DNA from: Minisyncoccota bacterium
GTDB taxonomy: Bacteria > Patescibacteriota > Minisyncoccia > Phycocordibacterales > DATDWN01
Assembly: GCA_036517395.1 (NCBI GenBank)
Contig: DATDWN010000013.1
Span: 2,191-66,190 of the forward strand
Reading direction: 5' to 3'
Length of the DNA: 64,000 nt
The notes below the pieces were generated by a model. The model was not told the origin of the DNA. It worked only from the letters and a program-made list of their open reading frames with translations, and did not search any database. Made by a program: the position numbers and the translations under genes. Positions 2,117 through 41,020 of this stretch are shown here, in pieces. Each line of letters opens with the position of its first letter. Position 1 is the stretch's first letter.

Positions 2117-2251
2117 ATCCGCACACCAAGTTTGCCATTGCTTTTTATGTCCTGCCAACATGTTTACCTAGATGTGAATTATGGTAGTGATATTAAACAA
2201 TGGTGCTATTTTTTTGAAAAAGCAAGACGATGGCAAACTTGGTGTGCGGAT
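2117..2251 (+). repeat. Inverted-repeat element family 1, copy 1 (22-bp perfect arms, 91-nt spacer) in the rRNA leader; no coding sequence downstream
   Basis: atccgcacaccaagtttgccat … atggcaaacttggtgtgcggat. Confidence 0.8.
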
Positions 2252-2471
2252 AAAAATGAATTAAAGTCCAAGCGTCACAATAAGCGCTTGGCAGAACGTA
2301 TTTATTCCGCCTCAACGGCGGACCCGCCGAGGAGGCGGGGTGCAAGAAACCAAAAGTTTCTTAAATATGATTCCGGAAAAAATCAATAAAAACATATAAA
2401 AGAATTCATCTGTCACGCAAGCCAGCATAAAAATAAATTTGTAAATAACCACATTTTTTACTCCGACAAGT

Positions 2472-2514
2472 GAGGAGCGCATGGGAGAGTAATCTCTCAC
2501 ACAGCGTCCGAGCG
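2472..2514 (+). ncRNA. Conserved structured motif family 2, copy A (GAGGAGCGC–hairpin with TAAT loop–CAGCGTCCGAGCG)
   Basis: A second copy at 8890-8932 keeps the flanks, while the hairpin stem sequence differs in a compensatory way. Confidence 0.4.
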
Positions 2515-2756
2515 CCGTCGAAGCAAAGAATGCGAATAGCATTCTTTATTTTGTTCCGTTCATTATAAGATTTGATCAATTTTTTATAAAGGGTCAGCAA
2601 AGCGAGTCTGAAAAATTTATTTTTCAGACGAGCGCGCGCCCCCTTTATATCAAAGATACCAATCTTTGATAAGAGTTTGATCCTAGCTCAGGATGAACGC
2701 TGGCGGTGTGGATAAGGCATGCAAGTCAAGGGGGCGCATCACATTGAGTACAATGT

Positions 2757-2880
2757 GAATTTAAAATTTTTACTTTAAAATTTAAAAATAATGACTAAAT
2801 GTTTTAATTTTAAAAATTAATTCATTAAAAATTAAGTTTAAATTCTAAATTCTAAATTAAAAATTCGCATCGCGCGCAGC
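2757..2880 (+). other. AT-rich expansion segment / intervening sequence at the tip of 16S helix 6 (V1)
   Basis: It is bracketed by the complementary ggcgcatcac … gtgatgcgtcacc. The content is low-complexity (aaatt/taaaa). Confidence 0.5.
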
Positions 2881-3274
2881 GTGATGCGTCACCGGCGAAC
2901 GAGGTAGTAACACGTGGGTACATACCCTGAAGTCAGGAATAACCAGTCGAAAGATTGGATAATACTTGATGTGATCTTCGGATCAAAGTCGCAAGACGCT
3001 TTAGGAATGGCCTGCGAAGTATCAGCTAGTTGGTAGTGTAATGGACTACCAAGGCTATGACGCTTAGGGGGAGTGAGAGCTTGGCCCCCACCGATGAGAC
3101 TGAGACACGGCTCATACACCTACGGGTGGCCGCAGCCGAGAATATTCGACAATGGACGAAAGTCTGATCGAGCGACACCGCGTGATGGATGAAGACCCTA
3201 GGGTCGTAAACATCTTTTATGAGGGAGAAAGTTTATTGATAGTACCTCACGAATAAGGGGTTTCAAAACTCGTG

Positions 3275-4220
3275 AAATGTGGGTTAAGCACCCACTTCCA
3301 TTTGAAACTTAAAAATTCGTAATTACCGTGCGCGACTTAGGGCCGTGAGGTTCTAAGCAAATTCGGCTTATATGCTGGAAATCTGTAAAGACTGCGCCAA
3401 ACACTTTTAAAAAAAGTGCGAGGTCCTTGACAGACAATCAGCAGGGAAGTCGGTATAATTAAGTAGTGAGTTTAACAAACAGACAAAAGGAAATAATAGT
3501 AGGCACTTTGTTGGGTGACGGATACTTGGAACATGATGGTTTCAAGGCGAGTAGATTGCAGATAAAGCAATGTGATCGCAAAAAAGATTATGTTTTTTGG
3601 CTCTATAACGAGCTGAAAAATTTAGTCAGAACTCCACTCAAACAAAGGAAAGATAACCAGCAATGGTATTTCAGCACCAGATCTCTAGTAGAGTTGGATT
3701 TTTTTAGAAGTCTTTTCTACGGATTTGGGAAAAAAGCTGTACCATCTATTATAAAAGAATTACCATTTTCTTCTCTTAGTCTTGCAGTCTGGTTTATGGA
3801 TGATGGGTCGTTGGATTATAGAGTAAAATACCATTACTCCTTTTCCTTCAGCACTGATTCATTCAATGAGCCAGATGTAAAACTTTTGACAGAATTATTA
3901 TTTGAAAAGTTTGATATAAAATCAAACATTCAGATGGTGGTTTCTCGAGGAAAGAAATATGTAAGACTGTATGTCGGTAAAGACGGAAGAGATAATTTTC
4001 TCTCTGTCGTAAGGCCTCATATTTTGTCCTGTTTTGATTACAAACTACCTCCGATTATAATTGACCCCTCAGAGACTGATCTTGAGAAAGTGAAGACTTT
4101 CAACACAGTGAGATAGAGAGATTTTTTTAAATCTTCTATAAGACGCCGAACCCCTTCCAAATGTAAATTTGTCAGGGTGATGATATAGTCCAATCCTCTT
4201 AGTGATAGGAGAAAAGAAGG
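3275..4220 (+). mobile_element. Group I intron in 16S rRNA (insertion near E. coli position ~515, just 5' of CCAGCAGCCGCGGTAATAC) carrying a homing-endonuclease ORF
   Basis: It interrupts a universally conserved 16S region. A P7/S-element-like gatgatatagtcc lies near the 3' end. The boundaries are approximate (±15 nt). Confidence 0.65.
3466..4116 (+). CDS. LAGLIDADG homing endonuclease (two-motif, single-chain) encoded within the group I intron
   Basis: The two LAGLIDADG motifs are GTLLGDGYLE and LAVWFMDDGS. Confidence 0.8.
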   Translation: MSLTNRQKEIIVGTLLGDGYLEHDGFKASRLQIKQCDRKKDYVFWLYNELKNLVRTPLKQRKDNQQWYFSTRSLVELDFFRSLFYGFGKKAVPSIIKELPFSSLSLAVWFMDDGSLDYRVKYHYSFSFSTDSFNEPDVKLLTELLFEKFDIKSNIQMVVSRGKKYVRLYVGKDGRDNFLSVVRPHILSCFDYKLPPIIIDPSETDLEKVKTFNTVR

Positions 4221-4857
4221 CCAGCAGAAGCGGTAATACGAGTACCCCGAGCGTTATCCGGAATTATTGGGCGTAAAGGGTGTGTAGGTGGTAGTGTTAG
4301 TCATTTGTTAAAACCCGAGGCTTAACCTCGGATCCGCGAATGATACGGCACAACTAGAGGATGGCAGGGATGTATGGAACTCATGGAGTAGGGGTGAAAT
4401 CCGTTGATATCATGGGGAACACCGAAAGCGAAGGCATTACATTGGGCCACTCCTGACACTGAAACACGAAAGCGTGGGTAGCGAATGGGATTAGATACCC
4501 CAGTAGTCCACGCCCTAAACGATGACAACTAGCTTTTCGGAGTATCGACCCTCTGAGAGGCGTAGCTAACGCGTTAAGTTGTCCGCCTGGGTAGTACGAC
4601 CGCAAGGTTAAAACTCAAAGGAATAGACGGGGACTTGCACAAGCAGAGGATTATGTGGTTTAATTCGATGGCAAACGAAGAACCTTACCAAGATTTGAAA
4701 CCCAACTGAAGACAGAGAGAAATTTTTGTTGTCCCACAAGGACAGTTGGGCAGGTGATTCATGGCCGTCGTCAGTTCGTGATTTGAATTGTTCCCTTAAG
4801 TGGGGTAACGAACGCAACCCTCGTTGTCTGTTACACGTATCAGGCGAGACTGCCCAG

Positions 4858-4990
4858 CTTTTTGTCCGGTAGGACATAAAGCTGAATAAAGAATAACGAA
4901 TATTGAATAAAGAATGAATGCAGAATACAAACTGTATTAAATCATTATTCATAATTCACGATTCATTATTCTCTTTTTGTTCGCTAGCGA
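4858..4990 (+). other. AT-rich expansion segment in the 16S hairpin equivalent to E. coli ~1160-1175 (cccagcTTTTTGT…ACAAAAAgctggg)
   Basis: Conserved 16S sequence flanks it on both sides (gactgcccagc … gctgggaggaaggcg). It contains three copies of GAATAAAGAA. Confidence 0.45.
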
Positions 4991-5792
4991 ACAAAAAGCT
5001 GGGAGGAAGGCGAGGATGACGCCAGGTCAGCATGTCCCTTTGATATCTTGGGCTACACACATAATACAATGGCGACTACAACGCGTTGCGACGCCGTAAG
5101 GCTGAGCCAATCGTAATAAAAGTCGCCCCAGTTCAGATTGGGGGCTGAAACTCGACCCCATGAAGTTGGATTTGCTAGTAATCGCGGGTCAGCTATACCG
5201 CGGTGAATACGTTCTCAAGTCTTGTACTCACCGCCCGTCAACTCAGGGGAGTTGGGAGTACCCGAAGTCCTGCATATGCAGGCCCACGGTAAACTCAATG
5301 ACAAAGAGTAAGTCGTAACAAGGCACGGCTAGGGGAACCTGGTCGTGGAATAATTCAATTTGAAATACTTTTCGCTTTGCGAAAGGAAAGTCATATCAAT
5401 CGCAAGAAAGATATGAATGTGTGTCGATTCCAGCCCCAGTTCTGAAACTAAATCTATAATGTCACGGAGTTTATAGTAGGTATAAACTTTGATAACAAAA
5501 ATAATATTGGTATCAGAACTGGAGCTGGAGGACAATGATTGTCTCGTCCTAAAACAATCTGACACTTGGAAAGACAGGAATGAACGGAACAAAATAAAGA
5601 ATGATATACCATCGTGTGGGACACGATGAAGTTGAAAGTTAAAAGTCCATAAAGTTTGTAAAGTAAATGTAACCACAAAAATACCGCTATAATAGGCGGT
5701 ATTTTTGATGCCGAAGTCCTGTACTGAGCTTTGCTCTGGTGCGGGATTGACTTTATACTGGGAAGTGTTATATAATAATAGACGGAGGAAAC

Positions 5793-8869: not shown

Positions 8870-8889
8870 TATTTTTATCTGCGACGAGA

Positions 8890-23186: not shown

Positions 23187-24884
23187 TTGATTACGATGCA
23201 ACAGGTCAAAGATTTTTTTGCTAAAAAGGAATGGTTTTTTGTTGCTTGTCTTGTTCTGGTCTTCATACTGATTCGCCTCTCTGGAGTTCATTTGCCTCTA
23301 CATCAAGATGAGTATAAATGGCCTATTGTGGTCAATCCAGCCAACACAAGTGGCATATCTATTCCTCATCCGCCGCTTTCCGAGTTTATCTATCGTATGG
23401 CGGGGGAAATTGTCGGATTCAACGTTAATTTTCGGTTCGTCCCGCTGTTTTTTGGATCAATAAATCTGATTCTTTTGTTTTATCTGGTTAAAAGTTTGTT
23501 TGGCAAAAAAGAGGCTGTGGTGGCGTCTTTGATTTGGATTTTCTCTTATTTTTCTGTTCTGGCTTCTCTTATGGTGGATACGGACGGGGAGATTTTGCCT
23601 TTCTTTTTTCTGCTTTCACTTATCGCTTATTACAAAACCCGCATCTCTACGGGCAGAAAACTGTACATATGGATGGCTCTGCTCGTTATTTTCTGCATCC
23701 TCGGATTTATGGTCAAGGTTAGTTTCATCATTGCTATTGGAGCTATTGTAGCTGACTTTTTGTGGGACAGGAGAAAAAATATAACCAAAAAAGAGGCTCT
23801 GAAATATATAGGTTTCGGAGTTTTAGCTATTATCGCTCTGGCTATACTTTTAGCCGCTGCTCATTTCGCTTTCTCTTTTTTTGATTTGTCTAAGGCTCTT
23901 GTTTACTGGGAGCACTTTATCATAAGCAAGCGGGATTGGTTTCAGATATTTATACAGTGTGTTAAGGCTTTGCTCTACTCCTCTCCGTTTTTAGTTCTCC
24001 TTCCGTTTTTTGGTGAAAAAGAGGATTTTTCAAAGGTCAGGGTATTTGTCTTCTTTCTTATTTTGGCCTTTATTTTTTACATAGTATTGTTTGACTTCTC
24101 CATAGGGGCCTTGGACAGATATTTTCAGCTTCTTATACTGCCACTATCTGTTTTCTCTTCCATAATCATAGTTAAATCTTTTGAACCCAAACCCGCTCGA
24201 GCAAAAGAGTTTTTGCTTCTGGGCTCTGCTGTTGCTCTAATTTTTATTTTACTTCAATCCTTACCTCATTTTGTTCCTGCTCTCCACCCAAAATCCGAAT
24301 GGATAAGTCGAGTGATTAGTCTCCGGTGGAACTTCGTCTATCCTTTTTCCGGCGGTTCTGGCCCTTTAGGATTTTATGTTTCCTTTTTGTTTATGGCACT
24401 CTCTTGGATTGTCACGTTTTGCTCTCTTGTCCTTGCCAAAATAAAACCAAACTATAAAACTCTTTCAATTATGTTTCTTATTCCTATTGGTGTTGCTTAC
24501 AACGGCATTTTTATTGAGGAATATTTAGTTGGTCTGTGGAATGGTCATGCTCCGACTTTGGTTACTCACGCAGTAGAATTTATTAAAAATGACTCAGATA
24601 TAAAATTTGTCACGGTTTACAACGACAATGGTGGCAACGAGATTATGGACATCGGCAAGTATCGAAAGCGACTTTATTTTGATCCCAAACTCAATCAGCA
24701 GAAAAAAGTTAGAAGTTTTAATGAATTCAAAGAGTATTATTTTGTCTTGGATGTGCCCAGACTTGATCCAACCAGTTTCTACCAAAAGTATTTTGACTCT
24801 TGCCAAATAGTCTATAGTGAAGTTGATAAAAAAATGACTTCTATTATTTATGATTGCAGATCTGCTCCAGATATAAGTCTCTAA
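23187..24884 (+). CDS. GT-C-fold glycosyltransferase (ArnT/PMT-like)
   Basis: A polytopic N-terminal domain with an HQDEY(KW) loop motif, and a large soluble C-terminal domain. Confidence 0.4.
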   Translation: MITMQQVKDFFAKKEWFFVACLVLVFILIRLSGVHLPLHQDEYKWPIVVNPANTSGISIPHPPLSEFIYRMAGEIVGFNVNFRFVPLFFGSINLILLFYLVKSLFGKKEAVVASLIWIFSYFSVLASLMVDTDGEILPFFFLLSLIAYYKTRISTGRKLYIWMALLVIFCILGFMVKVSFIIAIGAIVADFLWDRRKNITKKEALKYIGFGVLAIIALAILLAAAHFAFSFFDLSKALVYWEHFIISKRDWFQIFIQCVKALLYSSPFLVLLPFFGEKEDFSKVRVFVFFLILAFIFYIVLFDFSIGALDRYFQLLILPLSVFSSIIIVKSFEPKPARAKEFLLLGSAVALIFILLQSLPHFVPALHPKSEWISRVISLRWNFVYPFSGGSGPLGFYVSFLFMALSWIVTFCSLVLAKIKPNYKTLSIMFLIPIGVAYNGIFIEEYLVGLWNGHAPTLVTHAVEFIKNDSDIKFVTVYNDNGGNEIMDIGKYRKRLYFDPKLNQQKKVRSFNEFKEYYFVLDVPRLDPTSFYQKYFDSCQIVYSEVDKKMTSIIYDCRSAPDISL

Positions 24885-24950
24885 ATAGGGAATTCCAAGC
24901 CGGTTTCTTTTTGCTTTTTTCGTGTTAATATGACCAGATGCAAAGAATTT

Positions 24951-25087
24951 ATCCGCACACCAACATTGCCATTGTTCTGCTTTTTCAATAATTACTCTGA
25001 TAGATTTTGATAAAACATGACAGAAACAAATAATATGGGTATTTCCGAGCAGAACATAAAAAGAGATGGCAATGTTGGTGTGCGGAT
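24951..25087 (+). repeat. Inverted-repeat element family 1, copy 2 (91-nt spacer). The downstream arm spans the start region of the GT4 gene.
   Basis: atccgcacaccaacattgccattg … atggcaatgttggtgtgcggat. An internal TTGATA-18-TAATAT promoter-like sequence is present. Confidence 0.8.
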
Positions 25088-26204
25088 AAAAATTCTCTTT
25101 ATTATAGGCAATTTGGACGTCGGGGGAGCGGAAAAGCTTATAATCAATCAGGTTAAAAACATAGATAAAAACAAGTTTGTACCTCACTTGTGTACACTGT
25201 TTCCTTATGGAGACAATAATTATTCCGAGGTTTGGAAGGAACTCTCAGATATTCCATATCACAGATTTAATTTCAAAGGCCCGTATGATGTTTTTAGCTG
25301 GATAAAAGTGTGGTCTATTTTACGTAAGGAAAAATTTGATATATTCTGTTGCCACTTGTTTGAGTCGAACTTTATTATTCGAATACTAAATCTTTTTGTA
25401 GGCAGAAAACCAGTTTTCATTTTTGAACATAATGTTTATTTTAAAAAACAATGGTGGAAGATTTTAGCAGACAAGATATTGGCCAAGAAAACATCCAAAA
25501 TATTTGTCGATTCTCACGCTATTTTAAACTTTACTTCGGATCAGGAAAATATAGACAAGGATAAATTTGCAATCCTGCCCTATCCTATCGAACTATTGGG
25601 AGATAAGACTTTTGATTTGGCTAAAATAAAACATGATCTTGGATTACCCGACAATGCTTTTATCATCGGAACGGTAGCCCGTTTCGTTGAGCAGAAAGGC
25701 CTACCATATTTTATACAAGCTGCCGCTAAAATTTTGGAAAAAACCAAGCGTGAAGATATTTATTTTCTCCTTGTTGGCTACGGCAAAATGGAGCTAGATT
25801 TACGCATGATGGTGGATGACCTAAAAATAAATTCTCGATTACTCATTAGTCCTCCGAAAGACATAAAAGAAATTTTGCCTATTTTTGATATATTTGTTGT
25901 TCCATCTTTGTGGGAAGGTCAGCCAATCGCCATGTTGGAAGCCATGGCCTCAGGTCGCTCGGTTGTGGCAACAAAAGTCGGCGGTATTCCTGAAATATTG
26001 ATTGATGGGAAAAACGGTTTACTCTCGGAGCCGAAAGATCCCAATTCATTAGCCAAGGCTATTACTAAAATGTTGGAAGACGAGAAACTGCGAGTACGAG
26101 TTGGTATAGAGGCCAAAGGCACAGCTCACAACTATAGTATGCCAATCTATATAAACAAACTAGAGAAATATTTTCTCGATGCATATAATGAAAACGAAAA
26201 TTAA
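25017..26204 (+). CDS. Glycosyltransferase family 4. The true start is probably the GTG at 25080, giving MRIKILFIIGNLDVGGAEK.
   Basis: GT4 motifs FVVPSLWEGQPIAMLEAMASGRSVVATKVGGIPE. Confidence 0.7.
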   Translation: MTETNNMGISEQNIKRDGNVGVRIKILFIIGNLDVGGAEKLIINQVKNIDKNKFVPHLCTLFPYGDNNYSEVWKELSDIPYHRFNFKGPYDVFSWIKVWSILRKEKFDIFCCHLFESNFIIRILNLFVGRKPVFIFEHNVYFKKQWWKILADKILAKKTSKIFVDSHAILNFTSDQENIDKDKFAILPYPIELLGDKTFDLAKIKHDLGLPDNAFIIGTVARFVEQKGLPYFIQAAAKILEKTKREDIYFLLVGYGKMELDLRMMVDDLKINSRLLISPPKDIKEILPIFDIFVVPSLWEGQPIAMLEAMASGRSVVATKVGGIPEILIDGKNGLLSEPKDPNSLAKAITKMLEDEKLRVRVGIEAKGTAHNYSMPIYINKLEKYFLDAYNENEN

Positions 26205-26964
26205 ACAAGAAGCTATAAAATATTTTACTTCTCACTATCCTCTGGCCAGTCAAAAGGAAATAGACAAACAAGTCGAAGATTGGGAAAATAAATCTCGCTC
26301 AGCTGAAAGTCTACTTAAGTTTTTTGAAGAAAGGGTCGGTTTTGTGCGGGGCAAAAAAGTAATGGACGTTGGTTTTGGTAGTGGGGGAATATCCATGGCT
26401 TTTGCCAAGGCCGGAGCTATTGTTTCTGGTGTAGACGTTGATCCAGAGTTAAAAGATATAGCTGAAAGATTATTTTTAGCTGAGAATATTCAGGCTGATT
26501 TCAAAATATATGATGGTAGAAGTTTTCCTTACCCTGACAACTTTTTCAACTACGTTGTTTCTTCAAGCGTCTTGGAACACGTCAGTTTTCCTCTAGATGT
26601 GCTTAAAGAAATTTTGAGGGTACTGAAACCTCGAGGCAGAGTATTTCTTTCCCTTCCAAATAAATATTATCCTAAAGAAACTCATACCCTGGCTTATTTT
26701 GTAAGTTACATGCCAAGGGGCTGGGCAAATTTGTACCTGAGACTTTTAAAAAGAAGTCCTTTGGAAGACGACAATCTTCATTTTTACAGTTATTTTGATA
26801 TTGTCAAAATGCTCAATAAGACGGGTTATAAATATGAAATTTTATATAAAGAACTAGGCAAGGGTCTGGGTGTAAAGAAAACTTTGATTTTAATCCTAAA
26901 GTGGCTTAATATTCATTACACTGCATTTTTGAAACAGCTCATATTCATAATCGAGAAAAGCTAA
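26179..26964 (+). CDS. Class I SAM-dependent methyltransferase
   Basis: VMDVGFGSGGISMAFAKAGA…VDVDPE. Confidence 0.6.
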   Translation: MHIMKTKIKQEAIKYFTSHYPLASQKEIDKQVEDWENKSRSAESLLKFFEERVGFVRGKKVMDVGFGSGGISMAFAKAGAIVSGVDVDPELKDIAERLFLAENIQADFKIYDGRSFPYPDNFFNYVVSSSVLEHVSFPLDVLKEILRVLKPRGRVFLSLPNKYYPKETHTLAYFVSYMPRGWANLYLRLLKRSPLEDDNLHFYSYFDIVKMLNKTGYKYEILYKELGKGLGVKKTLILILKWLNIHYTAFLKQLIFIIEKS

Positions 26965-26971
26965 AACTATC

Positions 26972-28159
26972 ATGACAAAAAAAATGAAAGACAAAAATAA
27001 AGAGGACTACATTGTTTTCGGCACTCCCGCCATAGGAGAGGAGGAAATCGAGGAAGTGGTTAAAACTCTTCGCTCGGGCTGGCTTGGAACAGGACCAAAA
27101 GTGGCCAAGTTTGAAGAAATGATATGCCAGTTGACCGGAGCAAAATATGCCATGGCCGTGAACTCTTGTACCGCCGCTTTACACTTATCCCTTGTTGCTT
27201 CAGGTGTGGGCAAGGGTGATGAAGTTATAACTACCCCCCTGACTTTTTGTGCCACCGCCAACTCCATTATCCATTGCGGAGCCACTCCGGTTTTTGTCGA
27301 TGTTGATATGAAAACCATGAATATTGATGAAGACAGAATAGAAAAAGCCATCACAAAAAAGACCCGAGCTATTATGCCGGTTGATTTATTGGGTAGACCA
27401 GCTGATTTAGACAAGATTATGAAAATAGCCAAAAAGCACAATCTTCTGGTTATTGAAGACGCGGCTCATGCTATAGGAGCAGAATACAAGGGTAGGAAAA
27501 TTGGAAGCATTGCTGACCTGACCTGTCTCAGTTTTTATGTTACTAAGAACATTATGACAGGTGAAGGTGGCATGGTTTTGACTGACAATAAAGAATATGC
27601 CGATAAAATAAAAATACTGGCTCTTCATGGCATGTCCAAAGATGCATGGAAAAGATTTTCTGACGACGGCTACAGACACTATGAGGTGGTTTATCCAGGG
27701 TTTAAATACAATATGATGGACATCCAAGCCTCGCTGGGAATTCACCAACTGAAAAAGATAGATGAGTATGACAAAAAAAGAAAGTTGATTTGGGATTTTT
27801 ATAACAGAAAATTGAAGAATTTGCCAATAGGTCTGCCAAGTTACAAATGTAAAGATATAAAACACGTTATGCATCTATACACGGTTTTGGTTGATGAGCA
27901 AAAATCAGGAATATCCAGAGATAAGTTCATGCAAGAGCTTCATGTCCGCGGTATAGGAACCGGAGTGCACTATAATCCAGTTCATTTACACAAATATTAT
28001 CGCGATACCTATGGTTACAAAATCGGTGATTATCCAAACGCGGAATATATTGGTGCAAGGACTGTTTCTCTGCCGCTTTCGGCAAAACTTACAATGGACG
28101 AAGCAAAAAGAGTTGTTAAGGCGGTCAAGGAAGTGCTGGGAAGAAAAAAATCTAAATAA
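26972..28159 (+). CDS. DegT/DnrJ/EryC1/StrS-family PLP-dependent sugar aminotransferase
   Basis: Characteristic blocks LLVIEDAAHAIGA…GDIGC/LSFYVTKNIMTGEGG. Confidence 0.7.
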   Translation: MTKKMKDKNKEDYIVFGTPAIGEEEIEEVVKTLRSGWLGTGPKVAKFEEMICQLTGAKYAMAVNSCTAALHLSLVASGVGKGDEVITTPLTFCATANSIIHCGATPVFVDVDMKTMNIDEDRIEKAITKKTRAIMPVDLLGRPADLDKIMKIAKKHNLLVIEDAAHAIGAEYKGRKIGSIADLTCLSFYVTKNIMTGEGGMVLTDNKEYADKIKILALHGMSKDAWKRFSDDGYRHYEVVYPGFKYNMMDIQASLGIHQLKKIDEYDKKRKLIWDFYNRKLKNLPIGLPSYKCKDIKHVMHLYTVLVDEQKSGISRDKFMQELHVRGIGTGVHYNPVHLHKYYRDTYGYKIGDYPNAEYIGARTVSLPLSAKLTMDEAKRVVKAVKEVLGRKKSK

Positions 28160-28180
28160 AGATTATGCAGAAGAAAATAA

Positions 28181-28316
28181 ATCCGCACACCAACTTTGTC
28201 ATTGTTCTGTTTTTTCAAACTAGTATTTTCGTTTTTTGAATATCACTCCCAAAATAGATTCGTATATAACATATGTTTCAGAACACAAAAAATCATGACA
28301 AAGTTGGTGTGCGGAT
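28181..28316 (+). repeat. Inverted-repeat element family 1, copy 3 (90-nt spacer)
   Basis: atccgcacaccaactttgtcattg … atgacaaagttggtgtgcggat. Confidence 0.8.
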
Positions 28317-30381
28317 AAAAGTTGCTTTGATGAGTTACGCTATGGATAATCGTATAGCAAAAGGCACTGCTTTGTATACGCGTAAACTACTGGAGGGTCT
28401 TTTGGAAGATGATAGTTTTGAGTTCTATTTAGTTCATTATGAAAAGACGAATGACCCGCTTTATACGAAAGCCCATGAAATCATAATGCCAAAAGTCAGG
28501 CTTCCTTATGCTTCAAAATTTGTGTCACAACTTCTGTTTTTCTGGAAGTACAGAAATGATGGCTTTGACATCATACATTGGTTTCAGCCCAGACTTTACC
28601 CGTTTTATTCATTTGCACCGGCAAAAAAAATAATCGTTACCATGCATGGCGCGGGGGACATAACCGCTCCAACAGCCTTTGTTTTTTCCCGTTTCGTTTT
28701 TAATCTTGTCTTGAAGTATTTTCATAGACAAGTGACCGTCGCTATTGTGGACTCGGAATCCGCCAAATCTGAAGTGGTAAAGCATTACGGTTTTTATCCA
28801 AACAATGTGAAAAGCATTTATTTGGGCGGGGGCGAAAACTACGTTCCAATGGCAAAAGATGAGGCACGAGAAATCGTTTCTCATAAGTATAAAATTCAGG
28901 GATCCTACGTACTCAATATCTCCAGACTTCAACCTCATAAAAATGTTTGCAGATTGATAGAGGCCTATAGTCTTCTGAGAAAAAACAATAAAGATATAAA
29001 AGAAAAGCTTGTCATCGTGGGAAAACCAGTCAATTCTCATCCTGAAGAATATAAAACAGCCAAAGCCTCACAATTTTCAAATGATATTCTGTTTATTGAC
29101 TATGTTGATTCGGAGGATTTGAACGCTGTTTATTCGGCTGCCGAAGTTTTTGTCTTTCCTTCTCTTTCCGAGGGTTTTGGCCTTCCGGTTTTAGAAGCCA
29201 TGGCTAGTGGAGCGCCGGTTGTTACATCAAATATAGATTCAATGCCGGAAATAGGCGGGGATGCGGTAATCACGACTGACCCCTATGATATTTTGGCCTT
29301 ATCTGTATCTATGAAAAAAGTTTTGGACGACTCCAGTCTTAAAGAAAAAATGATAGAATCAGGTCTAGAGCGGACAAAACACTTTAGCTGGAAAAAAATG
29401 GCAGAAGAGACCAAAGATTTATACAAGCAGGATTATTCTAGGTGTTATTTTTGCGAATCGTTTTCAGATGCTCCCATTATTGAAACTCATGTAAGTGACG
29501 CAGTCGAATACTCACTTCACCATTGTCAAAAGTGTGGGGTGGAGTATTGGACTCCTTTCAAAAATCCCGGAGCAGAGTGGTATGAAAAAGATTTACGTTA
29601 TGCAAGTAGAAATATTGATCCGGAAATAGAACCGAACTGGCATCAAAAGAAAACAATTAATTTTCTTGGCCCAAGGATGGGCAGACTTCTTGACGTGGCT
29701 TGTGGCGCTGGAACATTTCTCTACTGGGCCAGAAAAAAAGGTTGGGGTGTTTCTGGGATAGATTTTGATAGAGACGCCATCCGCACCGCCAAAGAAGTAT
29801 TTAAACTTGATAATGTCTATGACGTCGATTTAACCCAATACATAAAAGATCATCCAGAATCCAAGTTTGATTTGGTTTCACTCTTTGATATTTTCGAGCA
29901 CATAGATAATCACAAAGAATTTCTGCGTGAAGTCGGTGCTGTGCTTTTGCCAAAGGGCTATATAGCCATAAGTTCGCCATACCGATATGGGGCAAGATGG
30001 CTAATGGGAGATGATTTTCCTCCTCGACATTTGACTAGATGGGATCGTAGATCGATTACAAGATATTTGGATGAGCAAGGGTTTAAAGTGGTTTATATAA
30101 AAAGAATGTCCGAGGGGGTCGGTTTTTTGGTTACCAAACTACGTCGAAAATATGGTAAGTATTTTTCTATGAACCTTATAGGAAAAATGAAAAGCAAAGC
30201 TCGAAAGGAAGGCAAGATTGACCTAGATAGTCCAGAGGAAAAAAATATTTCAAGAGTGCACAAATTGGCTCGGGTTAAGGACTGGCTCGTATTCGGGCTT
30301 CCAGCGGTGTTTCTCTGGCTTGGTTTATTTTTTAGTCAAAAATGCTATATTACTCTTTTCGTCATAGCTCAAAAGAAATGA
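28273..30381 (+). CDS. Fused GT4 glycosyltransferase plus C-terminal class I SAM methyltransferase. The probable GTG start at 28309 gives MRIKVALM….
   Basis: GT4 motif FVFPSLSEGFGLPVLEAMASGAPVVTSN. Methyltransferase motif LLDVACGAGTF…GIDFD. Confidence 0.65.
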   Translation: MFQNTKNHDKVGVRIKVALMSYAMDNRIAKGTALYTRKLLEGLLEDDSFEFYLVHYEKTNDPLYTKAHEIIMPKVRLPYASKFVSQLLFFWKYRNDGFDIIHWFQPRLYPFYSFAPAKKIIVTMHGAGDITAPTAFVFSRFVFNLVLKYFHRQVTVAIVDSESAKSEVVKHYGFYPNNVKSIYLGGGENYVPMAKDEAREIVSHKYKIQGSYVLNISRLQPHKNVCRLIEAYSLLRKNNKDIKEKLVIVGKPVNSHPEEYKTAKASQFSNDILFIDYVDSEDLNAVYSAAEVFVFPSLSEGFGLPVLEAMASGAPVVTSNIDSMPEIGGDAVITTDPYDILALSVSMKKVLDDSSLKEKMIESGLERTKHFSWKKMAEETKDLYKQDYSRCYFCESFSDAPIIETHVSDAVEYSLHHCQKCGVEYWTPFKNPGAEWYEKDLRYASRNIDPEIEPNWHQKKTINFLGPRMGRLLDVACGAGTFLYWARKKGWGVSGIDFDRDAIRTAKEVFKLDNVYDVDLTQYIKDHPESKFDLVSLFDIFEHIDNHKEFLREVGAVLLPKGYIAISSPYRYGARWLMGDDFPPRHLTRWDRRSITRYLDEQGFKVVYIKRMSEGVGFLVTKLRRKYGKYFSMNLIGKMKSKARKEGKIDLDSPEEKNISRVHKLARVKDWLVFGLPAVFLWLGLFFSQKCYITLFVIAQKK

Positions 30382-30387
30382 AAATAA

Positions 30388-30525
30388 ATCTGCATACCAA
30401 TTTTGCCATTGTTCTGATTTTTCAAAAAGAAATATATAAGTTAATCGATATACTGCTATGAAATTAAATTAAAGATAAATTATGAAAGAAGAACAAAAAA
30501 TCGATGGCAAATTTGGTGTGCGGAT
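30388..30525 (+). repeat. Inverted-repeat element family 1, copy 4 (92-nt spacer)
   Basis: atctgcataccaattttgccattg … atggcaaatttggtgtgcggat. Confidence 0.8.
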
Positions 30526-31645
30526 AAAGTATATTACAAATGTTCGAATTCCCACTGGACGAGCTCATGGTTACGCTATTATGAAGATGTGTTCTGAGTT
30601 TGCCAAGGCGGGTGTAGATGTGGAGATGTTTGTTCCAAGCAAGGGTAATAATGAAAATAAAAAAGATCCGTTTGAATTCTATGGTTTGGAAAGAAACTTC
30701 AAAATAAACAAAGTGAAGAGTTTTGATTTGTTGGGTAGAACACTTAAGTTTGGAAGATTGTTTTATTGGTTGGATATCGTCTCTTTTCTTCTGGCCCTTA
30801 AATTCAAATTGAGATTCGATTCTGGAGATATCATTTATACACGAGATTTTCTAATTTCTTTATTTTTGCCAAAGGCGGCATTGGTGGTTTTGGAGTTGCA
30901 TCACATTCCATTAAATCTTTTCTTATTCAGTAGAGCCCTAAAAAATGTTGCTTTGTTGGTAGTCCTAAACAGCTATTTAAAAGAGGATTTAATCAAGCTG
31001 GGAGTCAGCCCTACAAAGATCTTTGTCTCACCGAGCGGTGTTGATTTGCAAGACTTCGTTCCCAACAAGGCTCAAGACGAAGCCAAAAAACAACTAAACC
31101 TTTCTCAGTATAAAAAAATAGTTTTGTATATAGGGCAATTTTATCCATGGAAAGGGGTTGATACTCTGGCAGATTCTGCGCGGTTACTACCAGATAAATC
31201 TTTCATATTTGCTGGAGGTGTTGAACCGGAACTCAGTAAGTTCATTGGGAAATACGCTCAAACGGAAAATATTATTATAACTTCATTTGTAAATCGCTCT
31301 CTTGTTTCTATGTATATGGCTTCGGCCGATGTTTTGGTTATACCCAACTCCGCCAAAGAAAAAATCTCTTCACACTACACGTCCCCCATGAAGCTTTTTG
31401 AGTATATGGCAGCCAAAAAACCGATCATAGCTTCAGACCTGCCTTCAATCAGGGAAATATTAACCGAAAATGAATGTGTCTTTGCTGAGCCGGATAATCC
31501 AGAATCTTTCGCTAAAGCTATAGAGAAAGTCCTAAACGACGAAGACTTGGCCCTGAGGATTGCCACCAATGCCTTCAATAAAGTAGGAGAGTACGCTTGG
31601 GACAAAAAAGCAAAAAATATATTAAATCAAATCTCTAGTCTATAA
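30482..31645 (+). CDS. Glycosyltransferase family 4. The probable GTG start at 30518 gives MRIKYITN….
   Basis: YIGQFYPWKGVD…VIPNSAKEKISSHYTSPMKLFEYMAAKKPIIASDLPSIRE. Confidence 0.65.
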   Translation: MKEEQKIDGKFGVRIKYITNVRIPTGRAHGYAIMKMCSEFAKAGVDVEMFVPSKGNNENKKDPFEFYGLERNFKINKVKSFDLLGRTLKFGRLFYWLDIVSFLLALKFKLRFDSGDIIYTRDFLISLFLPKAALVVLELHHIPLNLFLFSRALKNVALLVVLNSYLKEDLIKLGVSPTKIFVSPSGVDLQDFVPNKAQDEAKKQLNLSQYKKIVLYIGQFYPWKGVDTLADSARLLPDKSFIFAGGVEPELSKFIGKYAQTENIIITSFVNRSLVSMYMASADVLVIPNSAKEKISSHYTSPMKLFEYMAAKKPIIASDLPSIREILTENECVFAEPDNPESFAKAIEKVLNDEDLALRIATNAFNKVGEYAWDKKAKNILNQISSL

Positions 31646-32965: not shown

Positions 32966-32966
32966 A

Positions 32967-35469: not shown

Positions 35470-35561
35470 AGTTTCATAATATTACTTTATTTTAGACTTT
35501 CTTACTAGCATCCATTTTACTGATTTGTTATACTACATCCGCACACTAACTCTTATTAAAC

Positions 35562-37799: not shown

Positions 37800-37878
37800 T
37801 TTTGAGGCCCATTGACAGAATATATAGATCAATATATAATAAACCTCGGAAGGATAAAACGGGTGGCGTGCGCCATCC

Positions 37879-38643
37879 ATGTTGTTTAACAGAAAGAGGG
37901 ACAGAATGTCTTCAAAAAAGACACGACAGAACTCGACCGACAAGAAGCCGACGTTGGAGATGCTCATCGACCTCACTCGTGTTGTCATGGGCGTCCTCGC
38001 GCGACTTTCGTTCGAGAAGGTTAACGTCCTCCTCGGCAACAAGACACTTCTCAGCAAGAAGCTGGAGAAGGTCTTTGAGATCGCGGCGGATCCGTTCGCT
38101 GCCGTACGCACCGAGTGGGAGAAGTTCTACCTCGACCACTGCAACATCGTCGTCGACTTCTCGGAAGTGACGATTCCTACAAAGCCGAGCGAGGGCTCAT
38201 GGCGGCTCATCTTCGTCTCGCAGGGTCTGACCATGAACGTCATACTCGCAGTGATGCGAGCGAAGTTCAAGGCATGGGTCTATGCCGAGGACTTGGACGG
38301 CAATGTGCCTACCAATACCCGCACGAGCGTCCAGAGCTACGCCAAGTGGGTACGCGACGGTGTTGAGCCAGACGAGGAATACCTCGGCAAGACTACTCGC
38401 GACGCAGACATGACGGGAACCATCGGCATGACGCTCCTCGAGCGTCTCGTGCTTGGGGTCAAGCATTTCGTCGAGACAGGGAAGCATCTCGACATCAAAG
38501 GCTGGACCATCTGCACGGGTTCTCGTTACTCGGACGGCAGCGTGCCGTTCGTGTACTGGGGCCCGAGCACGGCCGAGGTCAAGGTGAACTGGTGCAGCGT
38601 CGGCAGCTCGAATCCGACGTGCGGTCTCCGTCAGGCAGTGTGA
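37879..38643 (+). CDS. DGR target (variable) protein. The C-terminal ~39 aa are encoded by the VR. The gene is GC-rich (~56%). An alternative start at 37906 has an SD.
   Basis: The last 116 nt match the downstream TR, differing only at TR adenines. The C-terminus …VNWCSVGSSNPTCGLRQAV resembles the C-type-lectin-fold VR ends of DGR targets. Confidence 0.7.
   Translation: MLFNRKRDRMSSKKTRQNSTDKKPTLEMLIDLTRVVMGVLARLSFEKVNVLLGNKTLLSKKLEKVFEIAADPFAAVRTEWEKFYLDHCNIVVDFSEVTIPTKPSEGSWRLIFVSQGLTMNVILAVMRAKFKAWVYAEDLDGNVPTNTRTSVQSYAKWVRDGVEPDEEYLGKTTRDADMTGTIGMTLLERLVLGVKHFVETGKHLDIKGWTICTGSRYSDGSVPFVYWGPSTAEVKVNWCSVGSSNPTCGLRQAV
38519..38634 (+). repeat. DGR variable repeat (VR)
   Basis: 116-nt alignment to 38934-39049. 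All 14 mismatches have A in the TR. Confidence 0.8.
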
Positions 38644-38651
38644 TTTTCTCT

Positions 38652-38697
38652 TGTTCTCTTTTCACTTTTACCCTGCATTCGTGCAACCTTTTTCTTG
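38652..38697 (+). other. 18-bp RNA-type hairpin directly 3' of the VR, with three G·U wobbles, so strand-specific
   Basis: ccctgcattcgtgcaacc-tttttctt-ggttgcgcgggtgcaggg. Confidence 0.5.
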
Positions 38698-38933
38698 GTT
38701 GCGCGGGTGCAGGGTAATTTCGTATACTAAACATGGCTGTTAAGCTAGTCAGTGTCTATTTTACAAAAATAATATTGATGGTAGTTTGCCAAACATAAAA
38801 CTGCTTGTGAGTGTTTATGCATAGATGATTACAAGTGTGATGATGCAACACAGTGCCTGAGACATCAGGGTATAACACAGAGACTTTGGAAACAGAGAAT
38901 CGGTGAAATGGAAGAATGCTCACAAAAAAGACT

Positions 38934-39049
38934 GTTCTCGTAACTCGGACGGCAACGTGCCGATCGTGTACTGGAACCCGAACACGGCCAAGGTCAAGGT
39001 GAACTGGTACAGCGTCGACAACTCGAATCCGACGAACGGTCTCCGTCAG
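38934..39049 (+). repeat. DGR template repeat (TR), rich in AAC codons
   Basis: It is non-coding in the VR frame. 14 adenines correspond to non-A bases in the VR. Confidence 0.8.
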
Positions 39050-39072
39050 AAGTTTTAGCAAAGAATCTCGAT

Positions 39073-39360
39073 CTAGGTCGGGATTTTTTGTTGTTCCATA
39101 TATTTTATCCATTGATTTGTCATCTTCGATGTTTCTATGACAAGCCCTTCTATTCTTATGTACGCTTTCTCCTCGATGATTTTCAGTTCATGTTCCATGC
39201 GGACAAAATTCTTTAGGATTTCCAAAAGTATTCGAGCCTTTTCTAAAGTTTCCAGCTTATTATTTTTGTGAGAGTAGTAAGCTTTTATAAGCAAGTACAT
39301 TATTTCTTGGGCCGTCCCTTCGATGTATGCATGAATTCCAAGTTTGTCAGATTTCGGCAA
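39073..39360 (-). CDS. Avd-like small helical accessory protein of the DGR (four-helix-bundle family), divergently oriented to the RT
   Basis: 95 aa, predicted all-helical and charged. It sits between the TR and the RT. The assignment rests on position and composition. Confidence 0.4.
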   Translation of the reverse strand: MPKSDKLGIHAYIEGTAQEIMYLLIKAYYSHKNNKLETLEKARILLEILKNFVRMEHELKIIEEKAYIRIEGLVIETSKMTNQWIKYMEQQKIPT

Positions 39361-39434
39361 TTTCTTTCCTGTCTGGTATATGACAATGTATACTTGTTTA
39401 ATACTATGAATAATAGAAATATCGCTGTTGTTGC

Positions 39435-39443
39435 GGGGGGGGG
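39435..39443. repeat. Homopolymeric G9 tract in the avd–RT divergent intergenic region
   Basis: ttgcgggggggggagc. Confidence 0.6.
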
Positions 39444-39458
39444 AGCACTATTGGAAAT

Positions 39459-40457
39459 TTGTTTCATAATATTGTCAGTCTATCAAATTTGCTCCACGCA
39501 TGGGAAGAGTTCAAAAGAGGAAAGTCAAAGAAAAAAGATGTCGCTCTCTTTGAGCTTAATCTCGAGGATAATATTTTTGAGTTACACAGAAGCCTAGTCT
39601 CTAAAGCATATCAGCACACGGAGTATGAGGCTTTTTATATTAGTGATCCAAAACTAAGGAATATACACAAGGCATCTGTGCGTGATCGTGTTGTTCATCA
39701 AGCTGTATATAGAATTTTGTGCCAGATTTTTGATAAACATTTTATATATGATTCTTACTCATCGCGAAAATCGCGGGGAACACATTTGGGTGTAAGGCGT
39801 TCTTATAAGGCTTGTCGTAAAGTAAGTAAAAATTGGAGAAGAAAAATCTACATACTGAAATGCGATGTCAGAAAATTCTTTGATTCAATGGATCACTCTA
39901 TTCTGCGTGTTCTTATTGAGAAAAAAGTATTATGTTTGGAGACAATGAGGCTGGTCGATTTGGTTTTGGAGAGTTTCAAGAAAGAAACGGGAAAGGGTCT
40001 GCCACTAGGCAATGTTACAAGCCAACTTTTTGCCAATATTTACCTCGATCAATTTGACCAGTTTGTGAAGCATGGCCTTAAAATGAGGTATTATTTCAGA
40101 TATTGCGACGATTTTATTATTATTTCTGAAAATAAACAGTTTTTATCTGAACTTGTGGATAAGATTAAAATATTTCTGGATCAAAATCTGCTACTCAAAC
40201 TTCATCCTGATAAAGTTGAGATCAGAAGCATGAGGCAGGGAATAGATTTTCTCGGTTATGTGTGTCTGCCGAACATGATTGTATTGAGGACCAAGACAAA
40301 AAAAAGAATTATAAAAAAGATAAAGATAATGTTTGGAAAATTAAAAGCGGGAGAGATTTCACTTACCACATTCAAAAACACTCTAATGTCTTATCTAGGC
40401 GTCGTATCTCACTGTTGTAGTAGGGAAATAGAATTTTACATAAAACGCTTTTTATAA
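39459..40457 (+). CDS. Reverse transcriptase, DGR type
   Basis: RT motif 4 reads LPLGNVTSQLFANIYL (the SQ variant typical of DGR RTs). Motif 5 reads RYCDDFII (YxDD). It is adjacent to the TR/VR pair. Confidence 0.8.
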   Translation: MFHNIVSLSNLLHAWEEFKRGKSKKKDVALFELNLEDNIFELHRSLVSKAYQHTEYEAFYISDPKLRNIHKASVRDRVVHQAVYRILCQIFDKHFIYDSYSSRKSRGTHLGVRRSYKACRKVSKNWRRKIYILKCDVRKFFDSMDHSILRVLIEKKVLCLETMRLVDLVLESFKKETGKGLPLGNVTSQLFANIYLDQFDQFVKHGLKMRYYFRYCDDFIIISENKQFLSELVDKIKIFLDQNLLLKLHPDKVEIRSMRQGIDFLGYVCLPNMIVLRTKTKKRIIKKIKIMFGKLKAGEISLTTFKNTLMSYLGVVSHCCSREIEFYIKRFL

Positions 40458-40542
40458 AAAGTTATCCACACTTTTTATAAAAATCCAACTTGATTTTATT
40501 TTTTTGTACTATAATTAACGCAGGTCGGAAACAAAAAAATAA

Positions 40543-40681
40543 ATCCGCACACCAACTTTGATCTCGTTGCATTTGTCTCAAAGTTTAGTTGTACATCTTG
40601 AATTTAGATATAACTTCTAAATTTTGTTTGACTGTTTATGTGGCAACAGGGAGACAAGACCAAAGTTGGTGTTCGGATAAA
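40543..40681 (+). repeat. Inverted-repeat element family 1, copy 5 (100-nt spacer; arms extended by gcaacagggagac)
   Basis: atccgcacaccaactttg…ctcgttgc … gcaacagggagacaagaccaaagttggtgttcggataaa. Confidence 0.7.
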
Positions 40682-40744
40682 GTATACTTTATTAAAAAAT
40701 AATTTAGTTGAATACTTGTCACAGAGTAGTCAACAATAAATATC

Positions 40745-40786
40745 ATGGCAGCAAAAAAGAAGAAGAAAGCAAAGAAGCGAGCATAG
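40745..40786 (+). CDS. Mini-ORF encoding MAAKKKKKAKKRA, between two family-1 elements
   Basis: An ATG…TAG read directly. Coding status is unproven. Confidence 0.15.
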   Translation: MAAKKKKKAKKRA

Positions 40787-40855
40787 TCCCGTAGTAGAGC
40801 GAAGCTCACTACAGGATTGCATCTCTGCTTTTCTAAAAAATCAATTTGATTTTTC

Positions 40856-40879
40856 AAAAATCCGCACGTGCGGATTTTT
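40856..40879. repeat. Perfect palindrome AAAAATCCGCAC|GTGCGGATTTTT, made of two abutting family-1 core half-sites
   Basis: Read directly. Confidence 0.8.
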
Positions 40880-40885
40880 GTTTTT

Positions 40886-41020
40886 ATCCGCACACTAATT
40901 TTGGCATCGTCTCCCTGTTGCTATATAGAGGGGCTGCAAAAGTATCAGATTGTATCTAAATGTGGCTGTATATCTAGAATTTGAGACTAGATGCAACTAT
41001 GCCAAATTTAGTGTGCGGAT
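40886..41020 (+). repeat. Inverted-repeat element family 1, copy 6 (91-nt spacer), 40 nt upstream of secA
   Basis: atccgcacactaattttggcat…gtctccctgttgc … atgccaaatttagtgtgcggat. Confidence 0.8.

Follow-up and report, generated by a model that had tools for sequence, protein, structure and literature searches.

Inverted-repeat units in a Patescibacteria genome are probably gene-less copies of a small mobile element with a GIY-YIG nuclease gene

The stretch of DNA analysed here (64,000 nucleotides of contig DATDWN010000013.1 from the Minisyncoccota bacterium assembly GCA_036517395.1; hereafter the window) carries six copies, c1-c6, of an inverted-repeat unit next to genes that include three GT4 genes, secA and the 16S rRNA gene. 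A preliminary description, made from the sequence alone, had regarded the units chiefly as regulatory, either as paired operators or as a start-sequestering RNA stem, with a mobile element as the fall-back idea. A search of the window with the 13-mer ATCCGCACACCAA, allowing up to two mismatches, gave 15 matches against 1.0 expected, a number reached by 0 of 100 shuffles, and 12 of the 15 pair up as the six inverted pairs. The units are 135-138 nt long, their arms of 25-42 nt are 81-100% complementary, and each unit folds much more strongly than its shuffles (z -5.5 to -11). They lie where they had been placed, except that c5 ends at 40678 instead of 40681; its spacer had been given as 100 nt, and its spacing is that of the other copies (110 nt between the 13-mers). 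The -35/-10-like hexamers reported from the cores are not enriched, because promoter-like hexamer pairs are no commoner than in shuffles (19 against 17.7 expected across 24800-30700, and 2 against 2.7 across 40300-41200). As judged from sequence comparison, the six units are probably (we put the chance at about 0.7) gene-less, hairpin-forming copies of a small mobile element whose full form carries a GIY-YIG nuclease gene and which is widespread in one clade of Patescibacteria (metagenome-assembled genomes of the Paceibacteria type). Effects on neighbouring genes would then follow from insertion and not from a common regulatory programme; they comprise a start codon newly supplied, a hairpin at the 5' end or between cistrons and, for ~15% of copies, an extended -10 box in fixed register.

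The evidence for insertion is most direct for c2, c3 and c4. Relatives whose DegT protein is 79-85% identical keep the gene order GT4-methyltransferase-DegT-GT4, and in such relatives (L090 and L094; loci from other contigs carry L numbers throughout) the positions of c2 and c3 are empty, with gaps of 6-15 nt and no arms. The element-free orthologue of the c2 gene (L090 6037) starts with MKKIKILFTIGNLDVGGAEK, i.e. ATG AAA AAA ATT AAA ATC TTA (MKKIKILF...), and that of the c3 gene (L090 9114) with ATG GAA AAA AAA ATT AAA ATT GCA (MEKKIKIAIMS...). In the window, relic starts have remained to the left of c2 (ATGCAAAGAA, 24938-24947) and c3 (ATGCAGAAGAAAA, 28165-28177), and the relic ATG of c4 (30378) overlaps the TGA stop of the upstream gene (30379-30381); a relic start also lies to the left of the element in L041. 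Removal in silico of one 4-mer together with TCCG..CGGA gives MQRIKILFII for c2, and removal of the insert at c3 (expected empty-site junction, ATGCAGAAGAAAATAAAAGTTGC) gives MQKKIKVALMS, each resembling its element-free orthologue. The c3 site is also filled in L041 and L089, and the relic ATG is kept in three lineages at this site; in both loci removal of the insert (with the 4-mer TTCA in L041) restores the frame, and the restored N-terminus of L041 again resembles those of the element-free orthologues. In the case of c4, for which an element-free orthologue was not found, the reconstruction rests on restoration of the reading frame only: removal of the insert yields ATG AAA ATA AAG TAT ATT (MKIKYITNV), in frame. 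A metagenome scan for the c3 empty site in close relatives returned only unrelated genes with chance MEKKIKVA starts. Because relatives lack c2 and c3, relic starts remain and excision restores the N-termini, c2-c4 are, by comparison of the loci, insertions at TAAA (Table 1).

Consistent with the preliminary description, the right arms of c2, c3 and c4 each contain a new in-frame GTG (25080, 28309 and 30518, respectively), from which the proteins would start with MRIK. The junctions identify this MRIK as a replacement start, in which GTG-CGG-A is donated by the arm and TA-AAA comes from the Ile-Lys codons of the target. As far as the reading frames tell, the insertions split the first 3-4 codons off the three GT4 genes, which can now be read only through the GTG of the arm. 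The c3 gene must restart, because read-through from the old ATG stops after 24 codons; translational bypass between matched Ile codons was considered for c3 and rejected, since L041 and L089 have an ATT take-off codon against an ATA landing codon and hence no match. All three independent insertions are in frame, as expected if only in-frame events survive. The public calls of the three genes (25017, 28273 and 30482; 395, 702 and 387 aa) start at ATGs within the element cores, and their N-terminal extensions are probably annotation artefacts.

Table 1. Inverted-repeat units and related arm sequences in the window, with the junctions of the three units inserted into GT4 genes
Feature	Position	With flanks	Strand	Flanks and setting	Junction
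c1	2117-2251	2114..2254	+	TTCA-TCCG...CGGA-TAAA
c2	24951-25087	24948..25090	+	TTTA-TCCG...CGGA-TAAA; after codon 4 of GT4 gene	ATGCAAAGAA / TTTA / TCCG..CGGA / TAAA / AATTCTC
c3	28181-28316	28178..28319	+	TAAA-TCCG...CGGA-TAAA (direct repeat); 5' end of GT4-methyltransferase gene	ATGCAGAAGAAAA / TAAA / TCCG..CGGA / TAAA / AGTTGC
c4	30388-30525	30385..30528	+	TAAA-TCTG...CGGA-TAAA; after codon 3 of GT4 gene; left arm with 2 mismatches	ATGAAAA / TAAA / TCTG..CGGA / TAAA / GTATATT
c5	40543-40678	40540..40681	+	TAAA...TAAA; right arm with 1 mismatch
c6	40886-41020	40883..41023	-	TTCA...TAAA, read on the minus strand
Solo left arm ATCCGCACACTAA with extended -10	35537-35549	35526..35549	+	upstream of Wzy-TPR gene
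Compact palindrome, AAAAATCCGCAC abutting GTGCGGATTTTT	40856..40879			two abutted 8-nt arm ends, then T run

We next consider how far the element extends beyond the window. An arm-pair scan of genome contigs found it in 85 stretches from at least 28 assemblies, which are labelled Zambryskibacteria, Taylorbacteria, Campbellbacteria, Paceibacterota and others; a few of the contigs are probably mis-binned. With looser matching, the 85 loci contain 103 arm pairs of 131-141 nt (mode 135-137, spread ~2 nt) and few solo arms. In JBAZZC01, nine contigs totalling 0.70 Mb hold ~40 copies, and in some assemblies ~5% of the intergenic regions hold an element. For 60 elements with a long outward-reading open reading frame (ORF) on one side only, this was rpoB, secA, greA, rnc (RNase III), adk, polA, hisS, LOG, pilT/gspE, GT4 or one of many others. 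Because these neighbours are unrelated housekeeping genes, the theme of envelope glycosylation, secA and rRNA proposed in the preliminary description is absent; copies at non-homologous sites, as found here, are among the things that the description had named as indicating a plain MITE. In an Rfam search of the element, no match reached the gathering score, and sub-threshold matches were to generic long-hairpin microRNA precursor models. In the literature, we found nothing on the arm motif or on such repeats in the candidate phyla radiation.

The flanks of the element proved to be polar. With the boundaries set at TCCG...CGGA in 99 copies, one flank was TAAA in 93, and the 4-mer on the other side was TTCA in 33, TAAA in 23, TTAA in 19, TATA in 8 and TACA in 7, giving the consensus 5'-T[T/A][C/A/T]A-TCCG...CGGA-TAAA-3' for gene-less copies and for the gene-carrying form described below. 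TTTA...TAAA flanks, which would extend the palindrome, occur in 1-2 copies against 28.6 expected. A TAAA/TAAA direct repeat is present in 23-24 of the 99 copies against 12.8 expected, the rest having T[T/A][C/A/T]A on one side, and a fixed target without duplication fits these counts equally well. Many of the TAAA targets are operon junctions of the form TAA-ATG (e.g. TAAATG); others are the first Ile-Lys codons of lysine-rich N-termini or the TTTA ends of terminator T-tracts. Among 93 copies, 42 have a gene start on the TAAA side alone and 15 on the opposite side alone. For the latter group, the TAAA side commonly coincides with the TTTA in which the terminator T-tract of the upstream gene ends, and several genes on the opposite side have a promoter of their own (secA at c6, L015, L040, L053, L059 and L078).

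The link to a nuclease came from two seemingly solo arms ~300 nt apart, which turned out to enclose an ORF. This full-length form of ~302 bp has inverted arms of 20-22 bp (ATCCGCACACTAACTCTCAT ... ATGAGAGTTAGTGTGCGGAT) around a single gene, and in L047 the encoded protein (MFYVYVIKSKKFDNLYIGSTNSLRERLIKHNKGLVKSTKKNKPYVLIYYEAYKIESDARRREKMLKYRGQARNQLKLRIKDTLAQNES, 88 aa) consists of a GIY-YIG domain alone (PF01541, E = 3.7e-14, residues 1-71); the nearest solved structures are those of single-domain UPF0213 proteins (E = 0.003-0.01). The unit is built as [TTCA, TTAA or TAAA]-TCCGCACACTAACTCTCAT-6 nt-ATG...88 codons...ATGAGAGTTAG-TGTGCGGA-[TAAA], with the stop codon of the nuclease gene within the right arm, the ATG of the next gene 0-10 nt past the right TAAA and a -10-like hexamer (TATAAT, GATAAT or TAAAAT) whose end coincides with the first T of the left 4-mer. 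Such units lie between co-directional genes, e.g. between msrA and msrB or between genes for POR subunits, and L069 holds a frameshifted pseudogene copy between the same arms. Loci were fetched for four of the 585 homologues of the protein (88%, 76%, 74% and 68% identical: L102, L104, L106/107 and L110/111, respectively; the 100% match is L047 itself), and at every inspected locus arms in the same polarity flank the gene. A 59%-identical relative (L050) has variant arms (GCCCGCACACCAA) and a 63%-identical one (L022) has different inverted repeats. Taken together, the divergence of arms and protein is what one would expect if the enzyme and these ends belong to each other. Homologues are also encoded in assemblies that hold 135-nt copies, i.e. 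JBAZZC01, which carries two, CAVSGX01 and CAZNUU01. The idea that the 135-nt copies are internal deletions of the 302-bp unit was dropped, because only the arms are clearly shared. Other small GIY-YIG genes with different ends are found in the same assemblies (L046 2560-2900; L022 3500-3830), one with a copy of a tRNA gene's 5' part on either side and another enclosed by inverted repeats CCCGGTAGTGAATTTTCAAC, which suggests that the clade has several enzyme/end pairs.

The anatomy of arms and cores bears on the form in which the element is recognised. Read outward, the arm consensus is A-C-R-A-T-G-n-Y-A-R-W-D-T-T-R-G-T-G-T-G-C-G-G-A-T. The outer 13-16 nt are nearly invariant, and the next 6 nt occur in 34 variants, at which the two arms of a copy differ by 0.51 mismatches compared with 2.45 between copies. 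Inside the conserved CAT/ATG lie two further short blocks, arranged P-3 nt-Q on one side and Q-P on the other, that is, in the order a, b ... a', b' on one strand. They differ by subfamily (GTTGC/GTGTTTT, GTTCTG/CTTTTT, GTTGC/GTCTC, GTTAC/TGTGC) and, at offsets of +8 and -8 nt, match at 81-82% within a copy compared with 27-42% between copies. The RNAalifold consensus pairs the arms and one inner block. Because the linkers between the blocks measure only 3 nt and 0 nt, we judge the two crossing inner helices to be alternatives that do not form jointly, which is a geometric argument and not a computed result. Compensating change in both arms and blocks points to a folded single strand, as opposed to protein sites on duplex DNA. 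The inner part is oriented at random relative to the gene (28 vs 31) and to the polarity of the flanks (47 vs 46). Further, its orientation differs between genomes at the same locus (the LOG gene in L005 and L057; secA at c6 and in L040; c1 and L085), and the core has therefore been inverted repeatedly during evolution; core identity at shared loci is 0.59-0.73, compared with ~0.6 for reverse-complement controls.

The closest known system is that of the Ssn nucleases. These are single-domain GIY-YIG proteins of 94 aa, each encoded between hairpin repeats of its own (NTS/SRM) that also lie outside genes in hundreds of copies (Chenal et al., Nat Commun 2025, PMC11893778). For SsnA to bind, the hairpin has to be single-stranded DNA in a single orientation, which is determined by a short 5' tag (CGTC-ATTCCCGCG...); the enzyme cuts a few bases upstream of the hairpin, works with the hairpin halves on two oligonucleotides and restricts natural transformation; the authors liken the repeat-gene-repeat unit to an insertion sequence, its mobility being hypothesised only (PMC11893778). 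The present element resembles Ssn in its single-domain GIY-YIG protein (88 aa compared with 94 aa), in Tyr5, Tyr16 and Glu62, which resemble the essential Y6, Y17 and E64 of SsnA by position alone, and in a gene flanked on both sides by its own repeat, which is extragenic, present in tens to hundreds of copies and clustered at genes. The hairpin of both systems also has a non-palindromic, polar 5' tag (TTC-ATCCGC here and CGTC-ATTCCCGC in NTS). The published repeat, however, is a complete hairpin of 20-50 nt, whereas here each arm is one half and the halves lie 90 nt apart (267 nt around the gene); a further difference is that, for the present element, comparison of loci documents insertion at TAAA, with occupied as well as unoccupied sites and with a start codon supplied by the arm. 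On present sequence data, we regard the element as a Patescibacterial variant of the GIY-YIG nuclease/hairpin-repeat systems.

By analogy, the 88-aa nuclease would be an Ssn-like enzyme that recognises the arms when they are paired as a hairpin in single-stranded DNA, such as the lagging-strand template or incoming DNA, and that cuts at the foot of the hairpin, and this cutting would spread or maintain gene-carrying and gene-less copies alike. Such an activity would explain the invariant ends of 13-16 nt, the compensating change in the next 6 nt and in the inner blocks, and the polar flanks. The attributes of a MITE (miniature inverted-repeat transposable element) are also present: dispersed copies with terminal inverted repeats and without coding capacity, filled and empty orthologous sites, and a longer relative with the same ends, the ~302-bp unit, whose gene has a putative role in mobility. 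The fall-back idea of a MITE-like mobile element was therefore essentially right, given the non-homologous sites, the TAAA flanks and the sites that are empty in relatives. We would go one step further only tentatively, and consider it possible, though well short of probable, that the ~302-bp unit is a minimal autonomous element that moves itself and its 135-nt derivatives by a hairpin-guided single-strand mechanism, next to TAAA at gene boundaries. Insertions of an autonomous element of this kind would be tolerated in that the hairpin brings the flanks back together and the arm donates a GTG start.

Several observations weigh against the reading of the six units as gene-less copies of a nuclease-bearing mobile element. 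A nuclease alone leaves reinsertion unexplained, and the TAAA direct repeats also fit a classical cut-and-paste transposase, which was not found. The 64-kb window contains no GIY-YIG gene, and beyond the arms of 20-22 nt the 135-nt copies are only weakly similar to the ends of the 302-bp form. The published SRM search sequence (HGTCWY...) matches neither the window (0 hits) nor the arms after their collapse in silico, and a single arm is not a self-contained hairpin. Presence/absence polymorphism within a strain was not seen: at the three loci inspected among 11 contigs that carry the query protein, from different samples of the same strain, the c2-c4 region is identical and in the same orientation. 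Finally, at loci shared by distant genomes (secA, rpoB, LOG and the 16S leader) the boxes have stayed perfect, while the cores have diverged almost to saturation. This conservation of the boxes in place suggests selection acting in place and hence some host-level function, and it leaves room for an exapted role, possibly that of a hairpin by which the downstream start is kept beside a stop or relic start that lies upstream.

The best-surviving alternative, which we hold to be a serious though doubtful one, takes this last point further and regards the units as an exapted cis-acting RNA element, i.e. a transcribed hairpin, at the 5' end or between cistrons, that draws together the downstream start and the stop (or relic start) upstream of it. 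Such a hairpin could serve in translational coupling or unmasking, in protection of the mRNA 5' end or in RNase III processing, and could do so in addition to a mobile origin. In favour of such a role, most of the 59 orientable copies have a start codon 2-16 nt beyond one arm, and in 21 of 58 copies a co-directional upstream gene has its stop codon -13 to +21 nt from the other arm. Of 93 copies, 14 have an extended -10 (TGnTAnnnT) whose register with the left arm is exact, compared with 1 of 93 in the control; TATAAT upstream of the arm is partly a by-product of TAA stop codons, but the signal of the extended -10 in exact register remains. The near absence of stem-extending flanks over TAAA, the relic ATG kept in three lineages at the c3 site and the boxes conserved in place at shared loci are also in its favour, as is a 16S rRNA without CCUCC, so that start selection may depend on mRNA structure. 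Against it, the arm mismatches show no bias for the sense strand (11 of the G-U type vs 9 of the A-C type). The random orientation of the inner part also argues against it, as do the 15 of 93 copies whose sole neighbouring gene is on the non-TAAA side, several of these genes having their own promoters so that the copy lies outside the mRNA. Close relatives do without the element at c2 and c3, and a purely structural role leaves 13-16 invariant bases unexplained. For the start-sequestering stem of the preliminary description, the missing G-U signature and the 15 off-side copies tell against it as the general model, and what survives is that sequestration may occur as a by-product in c2-c4, whose GTG is within a stem of 22-25 bp.

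It is unlikely, in our estimate, that the units are ordinary MITEs of an unidentified DDE transposon with a 4-bp TAAA duplication, in one subfamily of which the GIY-YIG gene travels as a passenger. Terminal inverted repeats are consistent with this explanation, as are the excess of TAAA/TAAA repeats and the restoration of frames by excising the element with exactly 4 extra bases. Short forms of 71-73 nt with arms only ~45 nt apart, which would be deletion forms, exist in L011 (5237-5307) and L052 (5999-6071). Yet in the ~0.9 Mb of loci that were fetched, such arms were nowhere seen to enclose a transposase gene, arms surround the GIY-YIG gene at every inspected homologue locus down to 68% identity, beyond which the arms vary or give way to other repeats, and the 4-mer on the non-TAAA side is held to T-[T/A]-[C/A/T]-A instead of decaying freely. 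Among elements of the MITE type, the Correia/NEMIS elements of Neisseria are alike in size (100-155 bp), in terminal inverted repeats of ~25 bp, in an AT-rich target next to genes and in internally deleted short forms, and they are sometimes co-transcribed, contribute promoter parts and form mRNA hairpins. They differ in that Correia copies resemble one another from end to end, whereas conservation here is limited to the ends, and in that here there is no known DDE partner and the flanks are polar (T-N-N-A ... TAAA) as opposed to a simple TA duplication. The palindromic elements of Rickettsia are likewise small and mobile, occur in host-dependent bacteria with reduced genomes and are tolerated in the 5' part of protein genes, but they are translated in frame, whereas here translation would restart at a GTG supplied by the element.

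We give little weight to a REPIN-like element moved by the RAYT-like Y1 (HUH) transposase encoded at 985-1617 (motif NHFHL), 500 bp from c1. The protein matches Y1_Tnp (E = 1e-5) and REP_Tyr_transpos (E = 1.7e-4) and belongs to a large family, 55-95% identical across Paceibacteria and annotated there as RayT. Compensating hairpin changes are a hallmark of REPINs, and insertion at a fixed tetranucleotide without obligatory duplication recalls IS200/IS605. In relatives, however, the gene order around Y1 is conserved (S1-domain gene, Y1, MBL-fold gene, gyrA), with no arms in four 20-kb loci, and because of this synteny it looks domesticated. Only one other Y1 homologue occurs in the 85 element loci (L073; 35% identical, with a gene between Y1 and element), arms are the same in genomes with very different Y1 proteins, and it is the GIY-YIG gene, not the Y1 gene, that arms flank, c1 lying on one side only of the Y1 gene in the window. 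As an analogue, REPIN/RAYT still comes next after Ssn: REPINs also have inverted conserved ends, a less conserved spacer of fixed length, compensating changes, extragenic copies in tens and long persistence with a single-copy nuclease-type gene flanked by repeats (Bertels and Rainey 2011, PMC3116915). They differ in that the partner gene here encodes a GIY-YIG protein and not a Y1 HUH transposase, and in that the arms are not themselves REP-like palindromes.

There is at most a slim chance that the units are invertons, in which the arms serve as recombination sites and the core flips, as in the 5'-untranslated-region switches of C. difficile or the capsule promoters of Bacteroides. The random and locally differing orientation of the cores fits a flip, and the locus-specific variable parts of the arms would block recombination between loci; on the other hand, essential neighbours (rpoB, secA, rRNA) make on/off switching implausible, the window has no recombinase gene, the three inspected same-strain loci show one orientation at c2-c4 with flips seen only between distant genomes, and the cores contain no conserved directional promoter or terminator. 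Least probable of all are the paired operators of the preliminary description, for a dimeric or looping regulator with a Gal-repressosome-like geometry (~113 bp between site centres) and a regulon: their narrow spacing, invariant ends of 13-16 bp and AT-rich cores are outweighed by neighbours without a common theme, by insertion at loci whose orthologues lack the element, by cores inverted between orthologous loci, by arms that flank a nuclease gene in the same way, and by arm covariation and offset block pairing, which a DNA-binding protein does not require. The arm as an outward promoter (TGn + YAnnnT as extended -10; aTGnCA as -35) was also tried and discarded, being a weak fit and the same in both arms, with divergent pairs rare.

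The other units of the window stand in intergenic regions. Copy c1 lies between a promoter (TTGACT at 2046-2051, 16 nt, TATACT at 2068-2073) and the 16S gene (2673), 420 nt upstream of the latter, and the same position between secF and 16S is occupied in L085 (5691-5826); the short form of L011 mentioned above is also at the equivalent of this position. Copy c5 follows the end of a reverse-transcriptase gene by 86 nt and precedes by 64 nt a 13-codon, lysine-rich mini-ORF (MAAKKKKKAKKRA, 40745-40786), after which comes a terminator upstream of secA. Because this arrangement recurs in L098 (MAKKRKAKKAKKGKKRA) and partly in L040, the mini-ORF is probably a real tiny gene; the element is absent from the mini-ORF/secA region of L098. 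The compact palindrome described earlier at 40856-40879 does exist and scores as an intrinsic terminator with an 11-pair stem, the equivalent terminator of L098 being of unrelated sequence. Copy c6 lies between this palindrome and the secA promoter, an extended -10 (TGCTAAAAT, 41043-41051) that serves the secA ATG at 41061. The distance of 40 nt from c6 to secA given in the preliminary description is correct, but the polarity of the flanks directs c6 away from secA, which has its own extended -10; in L040 an element precedes secA in the same position and arrangement. The solo arm is likewise where it had been described. It follows an extended -10 (TGTTATACT, 35526-35534) by 3 nt, in the same register as in the 14 full copies mentioned above, and the Wzy-TPR gene has its ATG 12 nt further on.

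Further features of the window and of related loci are recorded here in their own right. The 16S rRNA gene (2673-5360) is split by an intron with a LAGLIDADG endonuclease ORF (3466-4116), and its 3' end (GGAACCTGGTCGTGGAATAATTCAA) is without the CCTCC anti-Shine-Dalgarno sequence. Several genes (secA at 41043-41061 and genes in the flanks of L015, L040, L053, L059 and L078) have a -10 or extended -10 only 6-11 nt before the ATG, as in TTGACA-17 nt-TATACT-6 nt-ATG of L015, which suggests leaderless or near-leaderless mRNAs, in line with the missing anti-Shine-Dalgarno sequence. A GC-rich ORF of 64 codons with its own terminator hairpin (1792-2030), between the Y1 gene and c1, is possibly foreign, because its composition is unlike the AT-rich surroundings. 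The reverse-transcriptase gene that precedes c5 (39459-40457) belongs to a diversity-generating retroelement (37879-40457), in which a variable repeat (38519-38634) at the 3' end of ORF 37879-38643 is followed by a GC-rich hairpin (38668-38717) and by a template repeat (38934-39049), with 12 of 12 differences between the repeats falling on template adenines.

Overall, the comparative evidence for insertion, i.e. empty and filled sites, a TAAA target, polar flanks and gene-less derivatives, bears on the mobility of Ssn-type systems. It comes from a different phylum and from a hairpin that is split around a long loop, and mobility could be tested with one small protein. For annotation, the results mean that gene callers extend ORFs into the element and that true starts can lie in the arm, which matters for metagenome-derived proteomes. 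They also indicate that a streamlined genome tolerates insertions at operon junctions and within the first codons of its genes. If the ~302-bp unit were indeed an autonomous element, it would stand for a kind of transposition outside the DDE, HUH, serine, tyrosine and DEDD classes, and the Ssn family would gain a biological rationale.

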